Shown piece after piece: positions 2,633 to 53,320 of a DNA stretch of 64,000 nucleotides. Each line of letters begins with the position of its first letter. The stretch's first letter is position 1. Where the stretch lies: the NCBI GenBank assembly GCA_038890815.1, contig JAWAFC010000003.1:575-64574 (forward strand), given 5' to 3'. The stretch is from Candidatus Micrarchaeia archaeon (GTDB lineage Archaea > Micrarchaeota > Micrarchaeia > Burarchaeales > JACRGF01). The notes beneath the pieces are model-generated. The model ran no database searches, was not told the DNA's origin, and worked only from the letters and a program-made list of their open reading frames with translations. Position numbers and translations under genes: made by a program.

Positions 2633-3053
2633 ATGCTTCAAGGAACGAGAGACTTTTGCAGGAGCGTCCGCGAGCGCCTTGCACATCGTGACTCTTCCAA
2701 ATGGAAGAGTCAAAGGAGGTGATCTATCCGCAGGTTCCCCTACGGATACCTTGTTACGACTTAGCCCTCCTCACGAAACTCCGGCTCGACACTGGCAATA
2801 ACCAGCGCCTCATCGGAGCCTCGCTTGGATGACTTGACGGGCGGTGTGTGCAAGGAGCGGGGACGTATTCGCCGCTCGATGTTGACAAGCGACTACTAGG
2901 GATTCCAGCTTCATGAGGGCGGGTTTCAGCCCTCAATCCGAACTTAGGCCGAGTTTCCCCCCCATTTCCAGTTAGAAAATGGGTTTAGGGGATTAGCTTC
3001 GCCTCTCGGCGTCGCAACCCATTGTCTCGGCCATTGTATGCCACGTGTGGCCT

Positions 3054-3084
<31 letters not shown>

Positions 3085-3131
3085 CCCACTCCTTCCTCGG
3101 TTTTAACAACCGCGGTCCCCACAGAGTGCCC

Positions 3132-3671
3132 TCACCCCGGAGGATGAGGTAGCAACTGTGGGCGTGGGTCTCGCTCGTTTCCGGGCCACAGAGCCTTACA
3201 GACAGAATGTCTGCAAAAAGGAAGGATGAAAGATGCAAACGCGCGCGATGGCCAAACGAACAGTCTGCGCCTCACGCGCCGAGTTCTGAAACCGAGGCGA
3301 TTCAGCAGAAATTCATCCTCGCTGTCCGCGCGCGTCAGAAAGGGGAGGCCCTTCTCCGCGCCGCCACAGGCATCAAACCAGCCCGCGATGTATGCGGCAC
3401 TCTTGGCATTTTTCCTCGAAAATAGCCGCAGCCTCTCCCGCTCGCACTCCTGGAAGAATGCGCGTAGCCTGCTGTGATAGAAGAAAACCTTCTGCCCGCG
3501 GAGCTGTAGCCTGTCGGCAGTGGTGAGCTTCTGCGCGAGAACCTCGCGGATGAAGATCTCCGCTAGCTCGCCGCGTGCGGCAATGCCGACTCCCTCTGAA
3601 GTTGCTCTGGCCTTCCACATTCCAAGGATGTGGGCAAGAGCTGGGCTGAGCCTGAGCTTCATGCGCCTCAT
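3132..3671 (-). CDS. LAGLIDADG-family homing endonuclease (intron-encoded; the reading frame continues 16 codons into the downstream 16S exon)
   Basis: A 179-aa ORF with the motif AAYIAGWFDACGG near residue 92 and a degenerate first motif (HILGMWKARATSEGVG) near residue 15. The size and two-motif layout resemble I-DmoI and I-PorI type enzymes. Confidence 0.6.
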   Translation of the reverse strand: MRRMKLRLSPALAHILGMWKARATSEGVGIAARGELAEIFIREVLAQKLTTADRLQLRGQKVFFYHSRLRAFFQECERERLRLFSRKNAKSAAYIAGWFDACGGAEKGLPFLTRADSEDEFLLNRLGFRTRRVRRRLFVWPSRAFASFILPFCRHSVCKALWPGNERDPRPQLLPHPPG

Positions 3672-3704
3672 TCCTCATTTATTAATAATAGGGCTCTGCG
3701 GCTT
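3181..3704 (-). mobile_element. Archaeal rRNA intron inside 16S (between GTTAAGTCCGGT and AACGAGCGAGACCC, E. coli ~1090-1100), carrying a homing endonuclease ORF
   Basis: About 520 nt interrupt two conserved 16S blocks that are normally contiguous. The intron is AT-richer than the flanking rRNA and contains a LAGLIDADG ORF on the same strand. Confidence 0.75.
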
Positions 3705-3851
3705 ACCGGACTTAACCGGACAGTTCACACCACGAGCTGACGATGGCCATGCACCACCTCTCGGCTCGTCTGGCAAGGTCTTCAGCCTGGCCTTCATACT
3801 GCCGTCGCTCCCAGTAATGTTCCCGGCGTTGAATCCAATTGAACCGCAGCA

Positions 3852-3895
<44 letters not shown>

Positions 3896-4078
3896 CCTTG
3901 CGGCCGTACTCCCCAGGTGGCAGACTTAACACTTACGCTACGGCACTGCACCGGCTCTAAGCCGGTGCAACACCTCAGTCTGCATCATTTACTGCTAGGG
4001 CTACTCGGGTATCTAATCCGATTCGTTCTCCTAGCCTTCGTCCCTCACTGTCGGACGCGTTTTGGTCGAGCGCCTTTT

Positions 4079-4128
4079 GTGGAACCTTTTTTCGTCAACG
4101 TTTTTTCGTATCGACGAAAAAAGGTTGC
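4079..4128 (-). other. AT-rich ~50-nt palindromic hairpin insertion in 16S between CCAGTGGCG and AAGGCG (E. coli ~720; h22/h23 region); possible mini-intron or expansion segment
   Basis: The 16S-sense sequence CAACCTTTTTTCGTCGATACGAAAAAACGTTGACGAAAAAAGGTTCCACA has 14-bp inverted repeats (AACCTTTTTTCGTC / GACGAAAAAAGGTT). It also has a 3-nt bulge (CGC) four bp from the helix base. The equivalent archaeal 16S region normally has no insertion. Confidence 0.5.
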
Positions 4129-5107
4129 GCCACTGGTGGTCCTCACAGGATTAACGGATTTTACCCCTACCCCGTGAGTACCCTCGACCTCCCCCGCTCC
4201 CAAGCCTGCCAGTATTCCCTGCGCGCGCTGAGGTTAAGCCCCAGCATTTCACAGGGAACTTAACAGGCCAGCTACGGACTCTTTAAACCCAATATTCGTG
4301 GGCACCACTTGTGTTGCCGGTATTACCGCGGCGGCTGGCACCGGTCTTACCCAACACTTATTCAGCGAGTTGTTTGGACTCGCTAAAAGCCGAGCGCGTA
4401 GCCCGGCACTCCGAGTTCCCTCGTCACGCTTGCGCGCATTGCGAAGGTTTCGCGCCTGCTGCATCCCGTAGGACTAGGGCCCTTGGACCGGGCTGACCAC
4501 CTGCGAAGCTGGTCATCCCGTTTGTCTCAGTGCCCTTCTCGGGGCTCCAACTCCCATTGCCCCCACCGATTATCGGCTTGGTGAGCCGTTACCTCACCAA
4601 CAACCTAATCGGCCGCAGTCTCATCCTGGGGCGGACGCGCTCCAATTCGCGCGCCTTTTGAGTCGCGGGGGAGTTCCACCTCCCGCGGCCTGCCGGGGGT
4701 TAGCCACACTTTCGCGTGGTTATCCCCGTCCCCAGGGTAGATTGACTACGTGTTACTGAGCCGTACGCCGCCCGCCCAAGTGGGCGAGCAGACTTGCATG
4801 GCTTAGTCGAACTCGGATAGCAGTGCCCTCCAGCGGGATCAACTGGAGTTTGGACTGCCGTTCTGACAGTCCGCACACGCAGGAGTACCACCGCTTAGCG
4901 GTGGAAGCACTCACGATGCTCCTCTTGCCGTCTCTCGCCATTCCTTGAAGCCCAAGTCCAACCCGAATTACCTCGGGTTGCCATCGCGAAACCGAGCCGC
5001 TCGAAGGTGTACGCTGCAGTGGAAGGCAAACTTCATCGCCGCGAACTTAGAATTCGCGCTTCATCCAGCCGGGACTGCAGCCTCTCGGTAAGCTCGATTT
5101 TTGAGCA

Positions 5108-43341: not shown

Positions 43342-44136
43342 ATGAGCTCCTTTCTGAAAAGAGTCATCCCGGGGATAGGAAGGCTGATCGACAGCGGCTA
43401 TTATGATGTGAGGTTCCCGCGCAAGGCAAGGCGCTCGCTGTTGGGCGCGGTGAGGGGAGCGGTGCGGGGCTCGGTGCCGCTCATCGCGGAGATAAAACCA
43501 GCCTCGCCGAGCGCCGGAAAGCTGTTCCAAGGGGATGTGCGCGAGGCCGCCCGTGCCATGGTCGCGGGCGGGGCGATCGCGCTGTCCGTGCTCACAGAGC
43601 CGAGATTTTTTGGTGGCAGCACATGGCTGCTGGCCGAGGACCTTGGCGTGCCGCTGCTACAGAAAGATTTCATAATCAGCGAGCGGCAGTTCCTCGGCGG
43701 GGCCGATGCCATCCTGCTCATTCAGTCGCTGCTCGATGCAGTTGGGGTCGATGCCGACGGGCTCATCGAGAAGGCGCATGCCAGGGGGCTCGAGGTGCTG
43801 CTCGAGGTCCATACGCTGGAGGAGTTCAGAAAGGCAAAAAACACGGATGCCGACCTCATCGGAATAAATAACAGGAGCCTGGCGAGCCTGAGGGTTGATC
43901 TTGGTGTGACGGAAAGGATACTGCGTGCCGAGGCGAAGGATAGACCGGTTGTCAGCGAGAGCGGCGTGCGGAGCAGGGCCGATGCGCTGAGGATGCTCAG
44001 GGCCGGTGCCGATGCCGTGCTGGTGGGCACGAGCCTGCTACGGGCTCGTGATGTTGAGAGGAAAGTAAGGGAAATCGTGTGGGGTATGGGCCCGAGGAGA
44101 TTTCCGCCAAAGGGAGAGAAATCCCCCCTGTTTTGA
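43342..44136 (+). CDS. trpC: Indole-3-glycerol phosphate synthase
   Basis: It carries LIAEIKPASPSAG, GINNRSLASLRVDL and ESGV. The last ~14 codons overlap a minus-strand tRNA gene. Confidence 0.8.
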   Translation: MSSFLKRVIPGIGRLIDSGYYDVRFPRKARRSLLGAVRGAVRGSVPLIAEIKPASPSAGKLFQGDVREAARAMVAGGAIALSVLTEPRFFGGSTWLLAEDLGVPLLQKDFIISERQFLGGADAILLIQSLLDAVGVDADGLIEKAHARGLEVLLEVHTLEEFRKAKNTDADLIGINNRSLASLRVDLGVTERILRAEAKDRPVVSESGVRSRADALRMLRAGADAVLVGTSLLRARDVERKVREIVWGMGPRRFPPKGEKSPLF

Positions 44137-44234
44137 ACTCCTGACCCGCGGCTGTCGCAGGCGCTCTCGCCAGATTTGTGTGCAAGAGAGCGTCGTATAA
44201 GACCGCTGCTCTGACCTGGCTGAGCTACGGGCCC
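44087..44234 (-). tRNA. Intron-containing tRNA: a ~42-nt insert in the anticodon loop and a ~31-nt insert after the T-loop (~59/60). The anticodon is unresolved (UAU if the intron is at 37/38; GCG if early in the loop)
   Basis: Read on the minus strand it gives acceptor GGGCCCG/CGGGCCC, D-stem GCTC/GAGC with loop AGCCAGGTCA, and anticodon stem GCGGT/GCCGC. The variable loop is GGGTC, the T-stem AGGAG/CTCCT with loop TTCAAAA, and the discriminator A. All stems complement perfectly once the two inserts are removed. Confidence 0.6.
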
Positions 44235-44270
44235 GCAAGATGTATATTATTACCATATTAAAATTATTTC

Positions 44271-52186: not shown

Positions 52187-53320
52187 ATGGCCGAGACGAA
52201 AGAGGGGTTTAAGGTAACACTTTCTGCCATAAAGGCTGATGTGGGTGGCTTCACCGGGCATTCGAGCGTGCACCCGGCGCTTATCGAGGAGGCGACCAGG
52301 CACCTTGAGAAAGCGAAGAAGGCAAAGCTACTCATAGACTACCATGTGACCCGCTGTGGTGATGATCTAGAGCTCATCATGACGCACACTAAAGGGGTGG
52401 ATGCAGCACCCGTGCACGAGCTGGCCTGGAACACATTCAAAGCGTGTACTGAAGTTGCCAAGCAGCTAAAGCTTTATGGCGCTGGCCAGGACCTGCTTGT
52501 CGATGCTTTCACAGGCACGGTGAGGGGCATAGGGCCGGGCATAGCAGAGATGGAGTTCACCGAGCGAAAGAGCGAGCCGGTCATCGTGTTCATGATGGAC
52601 AAGACCGAGCCGGGCGCGTTCAACTTGCCCATCTACAGGACTTTTGCCGATCCCTTCAACACCATCGGACTTGTCATCGATCCGGCCATGCAGAGGGGCT
52701 TCAGGTTTGAGGTGTGGGACATCAAAGAGCATAAGAGAATATTTCTGAATATGCCTGACGAGATGTATGATGCGCTTACTTTAGTGGGCGCGCAGTCGAG
52801 ATATGTCATCAAGAGGGTTTATCCGAGGGAAGGGGGGAAGCTTCCGCCAGATGAGCCGGTTGCTGTGGTGAGCACCGAAAAACTCAGTGAGATAGCCGGC
52901 GGGTATGTGGGCAAGGACGATCCGGTGGCGGTGGTGAGGTGCCAGGCCGGCCTGCCAGCCCAGGGGGAAGTGCTCGAGCCCTACGCCTTTCCACACATCG
53001 TGGCGGGCTGGATGAGAGGGAGCCATAATGGTCCGCTGTTGCCGTGCTCAATTGAGAACGCCACGCCCACACGATTCGATGGCCCACCAAGGGTGGTGGC
53101 TCTTGGCTTCCAGCTCAACCACGGCCAGCTTGTGGGGCCATTCGATCTGTTTAAGGATGTCGCATTTGACCTGGCCAGACACCGCGCGCTTGAGATGGCC
53201 GACTATTTGAGGGCGCATGGGCCTTTTGAGCCCCATCGTCTTCCGCTGCCGGAGATGGAGTATACCACACTGCCAAAAGTCATCGCAAAACTCAAAGATA
53301 GGTGGCAGGCGCTGGGCTAG
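52187..53320 (+). CDS. fbp: Bifunctional fructose-1,6-bisphosphate aldolase/phosphatase (archaeal class V FBPase)
   Basis: The sequence FKVTLSAIKADVGGFTGHSSVHPALIEEA matches the hallmark N-terminus of this family. Confidence 0.85.
   Translation: MAETKEGFKVTLSAIKADVGGFTGHSSVHPALIEEATRHLEKAKKAKLLIDYHVTRCGDDLELIMTHTKGVDAAPVHELAWNTFKACTEVAKQLKLYGAGQDLLVDAFTGTVRGIGPGIAEMEFTERKSEPVIVFMMDKTEPGAFNLPIYRTFADPFNTIGLVIDPAMQRGFRFEVWDIKEHKRIFLNMPDEMYDALTLVGAQSRYVIKRVYPREGGKLPPDEPVAVVSTEKLSEIAGGYVGKDDPVAVVRCQAGLPAQGEVLEPYAFPHIVAGWMRGSHNGPLLPCSIENATPTRFDGPPRVVALGFQLNHGQLVGPFDLFKDVAFDLARHRALEMADYLRAHGPFEPHRLPLPEMEYTTLPKVIAKLKDRWQALG

Follow-up and report, generated by a model that had tools for sequence, protein, structure and literature searches.

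A tRNA-Ile(UAU) gene with two introns lies antisense to the end of trpC in a Micrarchaeota genome

We analysed 64,000 nucleotides (nt) of DNA from a Candidatus Micrarchaeia archaeon (assembly GCA_038890815.1, contig JAWAFC010000003.1, positions 575 to 64,574), called the window below, in which an initial annotation had placed a tRNA with two inserts on the minus strand, opposite the end of trpC. This locus is very probably a Micrarchaeota tRNA-Ile(UAU) gene with two introns that are presumably spliced, and its overlap with trpC the secondary accident of a 144-nt deletion. Our sequence comparisons confirm that positions 44234 to 44087 hold a genuine tRNA-Ile(UAU) gene interrupted by two inserts (Table 1).

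Along the minus strand, from 44234 down to 44087, the gene begins GGGCCCG-TA-GCTC-AGCCAGGTCA-GAGC-A-GCGGT-CTTATA, is interrupted by 42 nt, resumes with A-GCCGC-GGGTC-AGGAG-TTCAAA, is interrupted again by 31 nt and ends with T-CTCCT-CGGGCCC-A. The anticodon stem is GCGGT/GCCGC, the T stem AGGAG/CTCCT, the 3' strand of the acceptor stem CGGGCCC and the discriminator base A; the CCA end is not encoded. When the 42-nt and 31-nt inserts were removed in silico, a complete cloverleaf of 75 nt was obtained, which ARAGORN called tRNA-Ile(tat), with all stems intact: 7 base pairs (bp) in the acceptor, 4 in the D, 5 in the anticodon and 5 in the T stem. The spliced product also carries the conserved nucleotides U8, A14, the GG of the D loop (G18G19), U33, the T loop UUCAAAU and A73. 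Removal of the second insert alone was enough for ARAGORN to report the same tRNA-Ile, this time with a 42-nt intron in the anticodon loop.

Table 1. Features of the tRNA-Ile(UAU) locus and of the overlapping end of trpC, in window coordinates
Feature	Position	Strand	Evidence
Pre-tRNA-Ile(UAU) gene, 3 exons and 2 introns, 148 nt	44087..44234	-	ARAGORN on spliced product, cloverleaf scan, orthologues
Exon 1: acceptor 5' strand, D arm, anticodon-stem 5' strand, loop to A37 (…CUUAUA)	44196..44234	-	
Intron 1, 42 nt, canonical position 37/38, relaxed bulge-helix-bulge motif	44154..44195	-	In-silico splicing, motif register
Exon 2: A38, anticodon-stem 3' strand, variable loop, T-stem 5' strand, T loop to position 59 (UUCAAA)	44132..44153	-	
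Intron 2, 31 nt, T loop, position 59/60, relaxed bulge-helix-bulge motif	44101..44131	-	In-silico splicing, motif register
Exon 3: U60, T-stem 3' strand, acceptor 3' strand, discriminator A73	44087..44100	-	
trpC, indole-3-glycerol-phosphate synthase, 264 amino acids (aa) and stop	43342..44136	+	Open reading frame, Pfam IGPS
Region common to trpC (+) and the tRNA gene (-), 50 nt	44087..44136		
TrpC tail MGPRRFPPKGEKSPLF, residues 249-264	44086..44133	+	Codon map
trpC stop TGA, reverse complement of T-loop U55-C56-A57	44134..44136	+	
AT-rich spacer, 36 nt, from the tRNA 5' end to the start codon of divergent SRP54 (44271)	44235..44270		

Generic tools do not see this gene. On the unspliced window, ARAGORN reported no tRNA, either by default or with the option for anticodon-loop introns, and an Rfam scan returned the rRNA genes and no tRNA at gathering or E-value thresholds; the Rfam matches near the tRNA site are at chance level (e.g. 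sR53 at E = 1.3). Lowering the ARAGORN score threshold gave 174 calls across the window and was non-specific. A scan for a full cloverleaf, which demanded the four stems, U8, A14, the GG of the D loop, U33, R37 and a T loop starting with TTC, and permitted a single insert at each of two places, 37/38 and the T loop, found this site as its single match in the window, and none in 100 dinucleotide-preserving shuffles. It replaced a looser structural scan, dropped as not specific (1.5 matches per shuffled window).

The initial annotation had thus given exact coordinates and minus-strand elements, and the tRNA with two inserts and complete T and acceptor stems that it proposed is borne out by the ARAGORN call after splicing and by the orthologues described below. 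Its insert of about 42 nt in the anticodon region is intron 1, at position 37/38. It had left the anticodon ambiguous between UAU and GCG. We assign UAU, because the intron-less tRNA-Ile(UAU) members of the family set the anticodon loop as CUUAUAA, of 7 nt; GCG was rejected, as it needs an 8-nt loop or breaks the anticodon stem. For the T-loop insert the proposed length of 31 nt stands, and the proposed boundary after TTCAAAA does not. This boundary, which would give the loop UUCAAAA, was rejected since the intron-less orthologues L003 and L134 read UUCAAAU and the best register of the splicing motif is 59/60, one base earlier. In the 38 long open reading frames (ORFs) of the window, AUA is used 18 times per 1000 codons and makes up 31% of the Ile codons, so that a functional AUA decoder is needed. 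No other tRNA-Ile was found in the window.

The gene belongs to a large family. An exact-pattern scan of species-representative genomes with the 5' half and its CTTATA loop returned at least 120 loci (L005-L124), and the counts that follow hold among the matches listed. Well over 100 species-level genomes carry a tRNA-Ile(UAU) that shares the D arm of this gene; nearly all are DPANN (Micrarchaeota, Woesearchaeota, Pacearchaeota, Iainarchaeota and Nanoarchaeota), and a few of the records are bacterial. The same 75-nt tRNA-Ile(UAU), alignable position for position, was resolved in 109 of 123 pattern matches, and the acceptor, anticodon and T stems of these 109 loci show many compensatory changes. 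The stem-pairing figures of 92/92 are partly circular, as extraction required pairing, and it is the diversity of pair types that is informative. About 30 loci have no insert, about 60 have one at 37/38 only, and 17-20 carry a further one in the T loop. Among the 20 loci with a T-loop insert (3 of which are duplicates, L001 being a second assembly of L002, and L125 and the window being one locus), the best register of the splicing motif is 59/60 in 14 and 58/59 in 4. With TAAGAGA or TAAGAAA at the end of the 37/38 intron, most of the family forms a strict central helix; the TGCGAC that ends the intron in the clade of the window makes the helix relaxed.

Archaeal tRNA introns were modelled here as bulge-helix-bulge (BHB) motifs with an outer exon helix, a 4-bp central helix, two 3-nt bulges and an inner intron helix, the cut being placed after the second nucleotide of each bulge. 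Both inserts fit this 3-4-3 geometry exactly at the splice sites that restore the tRNA, each with three of the four central pairs; a BHB-like motif at the intron flanks, on which the initial annotation had staked its finding, is therefore present on both introns, in relaxed form and in the exact splice-site register. In intron 1 the outer helix is the anticodon stem, the central helix consists of C-G, UxC (a non-pair), U.G and A-U, the bulges are UAC and ACA, and the inner helix comprises G-C, AxC and then seven pairs (8 pairs with one mismatch). In intron 2 the T stem is the outer helix, the central helix is U-A, U.G, C-G and AxC, the bulges are AAA and AAU, and the inner helix closes a hairpin with three G.U and four Watson-Crick pairs. 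The 59/60 register has the best score for intron 2, and within its run of A residues neighbouring cut positions yield an identical mature loop. Alternative registers for intron 1 reached equal numeric scores, but they restore no tRNA and were set aside.

The reading is decided by orthologous loci. The gene order trpD-trpC-tRNA(-)-SRP54 is common to the window and to two relatives: L002 (GCA_038870455.1), whose TrpC and SRP54 are 81% and 87% identical to those of the window, and L003, from a JGI metagenome. L134, also a JGI metagenome sequence, is a short contig that holds only the tRNA(-)-SRP54 part. For this more distant pair, identity is 62% for TrpC and 81-82% for SRP54. Across these three loci and the window the tRNA exons are identical at 74 of 75 positions, the sole difference being a C/T in the D loop, in exon 1, while the neighbouring proteins have diverged by 13-38%. 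The anticodon-loop intron measures 42 nt in the window, 43 nt in L002 and 40 nt in L003 and L134; that of the window is 82-88% identical to the L002 and L003 introns, with the differences concentrated in the interior. The T-loop intron is 31 nt long in the window and 79 nt in L002, at the same 59/60 site, and is absent from L003 and L134, whose intact T loop, TTCAAAT, is precisely the spliced loop predicted for the window with the insert at 59/60. The second intron is thus polymorphic for presence and absence at one precise site within conserved exons. The 79-nt intron of L002 has a strict BHB with a fully paired central helix (4/4, TTCA/TGAA), and the 31-nt intron may be its shortened derivative. 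Judged from these orthologous loci, both inserts appear to behave as introns.

Beyond these relatives, L137, a more distant Micrarchaeota locus (SRP54 69% identical), has a tRNA-Ile(UAU) beside SRP54 with both anticodon-loop and T-loop inserts. Synteny was not found in L004 (TrpC 55% identical) or L135 (SRP54 68% identical), and a metagenome scan with TrpC gave no close relative, its top match being 43% identical. The closest named relatives of both TrpC and SRP54 are in assemblies labelled 'Candidatus Micrarchaeia/Micrarchaeota archaeon'. As a separate observation, a tRNA-like element lies on the minus strand in L137 and L138, about 150-260 nt ahead of SRP54 and just upstream of tRNA-Ile(UAU). 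It starts GGGCCCATAGCTCAG and ends CTATGGGCCC, with no recognisable anticodon or T arm between, and may be a degenerate duplicate of a tRNA 5' half or a highly disrupted tRNA.

The second part of our reading concerns trpC. As the initial annotation had noted, the tRNA gene lies antisense to the last 50 nt of trpC, an ORF without an in-frame stop before its terminal TGA. The protein matches Pfam IGPS at residues 29-244 (E = 2.7e-54) and holds every residue invariant among 16 homologues. Homology with the closest relative stops at …VREIVWG (residue 248). The 16-residue tail that follows is lineage-specific: it lies outside the IGPS domain and has no counterpart in the 15 homologues of an alignment of 16 sequences. 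The annotation had further held that the tail is encoded by the tRNA intron. This is right for residues 254-263 (FPPKGEKSPL), antisense to the T-loop intron, and wrong for residues 249-253 (MGPRR), antisense to the 3' exon, exon 3; the last codon (Phe, residue 264) spans the boundary between intron 2 and exon 2.

The overlap is most probably young. The trpC stop and the tRNA are 124 nt apart in L002 and 369 nt apart in L003, and in a DNA alignment the distance from the VWG codon to the tRNA 3' end is 145 nt in L002 and 1 nt in the window. What the window has lost includes the ancestral trpC stop and a small ORF. Out of 112 loci among the matches listed, only the window and its duplicate L125 have a convergent ORF of 120 aa or more that terminates within the tRNA. 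Because the tRNA of the relatives lies 124-369 nt past the trpC stop, the overlap would be derived and not conserved, and on these matches it appears unique to this genome. A net deletion of 144 nt in this lineage is the simplest explanation for its origin. The TrpC tail would then be, most simply, a neutral appendage, and it is probably functionless.

The small basic ORF between trpC and the tRNA lies on the plus strand at 3734-3856 in L002, at about 3960-4060 in L003 and at 165-368 in L134. It reads …EWEE…RREYIPFGRKVRPSRKSL, includes YIPFG[RK]KVRPSRK, and is conserved as a protein in all three loci; in L003 and L134, repeats of the EWEEEGERK type come before it. Of its 7 nucleotide differences, 4 are synonymous. 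It matches no Pfam family, and no copy was found elsewhere in the 64-kb window.

Several points weigh against this reading. Neither intron has the strict hBHBh' motif, and the central helices hold UxC and AxC non-pairs. The unconstrained minimum-energy fold of the precursor (-69.4 kcal/mol, z = -4.26) keeps the acceptor and T stems, together with the intron-2 helix in a 3-bp version, and refolds the D/anticodon region; it contains neither the anticodon stem nor the intron-1 BHB, and a fold constrained to the cloverleaf is 10.7 kcal/mol worse. Thermodynamics alone is no proof of the intron-1 motif. Homology between the 31-nt and 79-nt introns is weakly supported, as 5 of 500 shuffles align as well. 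Finally, the two assemblies that share the trpC-tRNA junction may stem from the same or related samples.

The first two of these points, together with the overlap itself, would fit a tRNA gene that is decaying to a pseudogene, the deletions behind the shorter T-loop intron and the lost downstream spacer having damaged its BHB motifs and the terminator region while another gene elsewhere in the genome decodes AUA; both central helices here have a non-pair, against 4/4 pairing in the T-loop intron of L002. We nevertheless consider decay improbable. The exons still match those of the orthologues at 74 of 75 positions, although TrpC identity to the same loci is down to 62-81%, all stems are intact, and AUA codons are common. 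The UxC non-pair of intron 1 is common to all four related loci and therefore evidently tolerated. Moreover, the ARMAN genomes use tRNA-Ile(UAU) as their AUA decoder, and their endonuclease accepts relaxed motifs (PMC3239211).

It is very improbable that the overlap is an assembly artefact, that is, a spurious deletion in a genome that in reality has a spacer like that of L002. The junction is known from one population only, and the relatives all keep trpC and the tRNA apart by the distances given above. However, L125, a separately built Logan contig from SRR27730023, shows 0 mismatches to the window over 6452 nt, junction included, the ORF is open and in frame, and no repeat that could provoke a collapse was seen at the junction.

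The antisense arrangement could also have consequences for RNA processing. A read-through transcript of trpC is perfectly complementary to the 3' exon and the T-loop intron, and could form a duplex with them that masks the relaxed 59/60 BHB, a possibility to which we give very little credence. If it held, the masking duplex would couple expression of the tryptophan operon to the maturation of the only AUA-decoding tRNA, and the intron would then be constrained twice over, since it has to serve as a BHB substrate and also to code for protein. Functional antisense coupling appears to get no support, given the missing conservation of the overlap. Least credible of all is that the overlap is used, whether by pairing of the trpC mRNA 3' end with the pre-tRNA (3' exon and T-loop intron) to modulate tRNA maturation or trpC mRNA stability or through a role of the tail peptide: expression of both genes would necessarily bring convergent transcription across the 50 shared bases, and no strong oligo-T terminator lies between trpC and the tRNA, but the arrangement is unique among about 110 loci of the matches listed, is absent from the closest relatives, and adds an unconserved tail outside the enzyme domain that a simple deletion explains.

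For a functional two-intron gene, the following course can be proposed. The precursor would be transcribed from the AT-rich spacer shared with divergent SRP54. A TATA-like box, TTTTAATAT, is found on the minus strand about 23-31 nt upstream of G1 of the tRNA, and another, TATATTATT, on the plus strand about 20-28 nt upstream of the SRP54 ATG; both AT-rich boxes of the spacer are kept in L002 and L003. By analogy with archaeal promoter architecture, they would be back-to-back promoters, which implies an SRP54 mRNA that is leaderless or nearly so. A broad-specificity splicing endonuclease of the ε2 type would cut both relaxed BHB motifs, and ligation and CCA addition would yield a 75-nt tRNA decoding AUA. 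As to the overlap, the net 144-nt deletion would have taken the trpC stop, the small downstream ORF and the spacer. Translation of trpC would since run through the antisense of the 3' exon and the T-loop intron up to a TGA that is the complement of the T-loop UCA, and this run-on would append 16 residues to a protein whose IGPS domain is otherwise complete.

Micrarchaeota tRNAs with two introns of this kind have been described before (PMC3239211). In ARMAN-2 (Candidatus Micrarchaeum acidiphilum), tRNA-Ile(UAU) has a 25-nt intron at 37/38, which the ε2 splicing endonuclease excises in vitro; in the same assays this enzyme cuts strict as well as relaxed BHB motifs (Fujishima et al. 2011, PMC3239211). 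The same study reported non-canonical 59/60 introns in tRNA-Cys and tRNA-Pro and two introns in some tRNAs of ARMAN-2, and the lack of TiaS and tRNA-Ile(CAU) in ARMAN genomes (PMC3239211). The gene of the window is of the same phylum-level group and the same isoacceptor as the ARMAN-2 tRNA-Ile(UAU), and shares its canonical 37/38 intron. However, the ARMAN-2 gene has this one intron only, with a strict hBHBh' motif, whereas here the intron is of 42 nt with a UxC in its central helix, and a T-loop intron and the trpC overlap are added. The T-loop intron resembles those of ARMAN-2 tRNA-Cys and tRNA-Pro, which lie at the same non-canonical site, exactly 59/60, and are cleaved by ε2, one of them with a relaxed motif. 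ARMAN-2 tRNA-Pro also has two introns, but both in the T arm (53/54 and 59/60), unlike the 37/38 and 59/60 pair found here, and ARMAN-2 tRNA-Cys has a 13-nt intron of hBH type; both differ from the gene of the window in isoacceptor.

In Thermoproteales and Thaumarchaeota, up to three BHB introns per tRNA gene occur, at canonical and non-canonical positions, and such multi-intron genes escape generic finders but are detected in intron-aware archaeal modes such as that of tRNAscan-SE 2.0 (PMC8450103). These are other lineages than Micrarchaeota, with an (αβ)2 and not an ε2 endonuclease. Closer to the gene of the window are further DPANN loci (L023, L027, L040, L054, L065, L074, L090, L115, L120, L137 and others), whose tRNA-Ile(UAU) has 37/38 and T-loop introns, the latter with 59/60 or 58/59 as the best BHB register. 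Their introns, of 26-100 nt, are unrelated to those of the window or very different, and no convergent ORF ends inside the tRNA. Two things are particular here: the combination of 37/38 and 59/60 introns in tRNA-Ile(UAU), which is recurrent in other DPANN, and the 50-nt antisense overlap with trpC.

Short convergent 3' overlaps in compact genomes arise where a gene loses its stop codon and reads on to the next in-frame one, within its neighbour. The present case differs from the usual ones in that the partner is an intron-containing tRNA gene and part of the protein tail is antisense to an RNA intron. The trpC overlap is a curiosity, with nothing to indicate a function: a deletion in a shrinking genome has left a protein to take both its final residues and its stop codon from the strand opposite a tRNA gene. 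The practical consequence lies with annotation: generic finders (ARAGORN, the Rfam tRNA model) miss both this tRNA-Ile(UAU) and a two-intron tRNA-Ala of the window, and Micrarchaeota gene sets built with them will seem to be without essential tRNAs, the AUA decoder included. The four related loci also form a natural series of intron turnover at one site (absent, 31 nt and 79 nt, from strict to relaxed), which can be used for testing the tolerance of the ε2 endonuclease.

This second two-intron tRNA, tRNA-Ala(UGC) with the G3.U70 pair, lies in the 16S-23S spacer at 2490-2632 on the minus strand. Its D-loop insert, of 30-32 nt at about 2583-2612, is fitted equally well by two BHB registers, and its T-loop intron, of 39 nt at 59/60 (2504-2542), has a central helix paired at 4/4 positions. 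Default ARAGORN and Rfam missed it, and ARAGORN called tRNA-Ala(tgc) after in-silico splicing; taken by itself, the scan that brought it to light lacks specificity. A weak Rfam match to a CRISPR-DR family at 52976 was discarded, as there is no repeat array there. The rRNA genes of the window are archaeal by Rfam. The large-subunit rRNA occupies 1-2326 and is cut by the window end. The small-subunit rRNA, at 2714-4849 on the minus strand, is 2136 nt long against a model of 1478 nt, and its Rfam alignment leaves insertions unaligned (two of them measure 40 and 53 nt), so that the 16S gene may contain rRNA introns or expansion segments.

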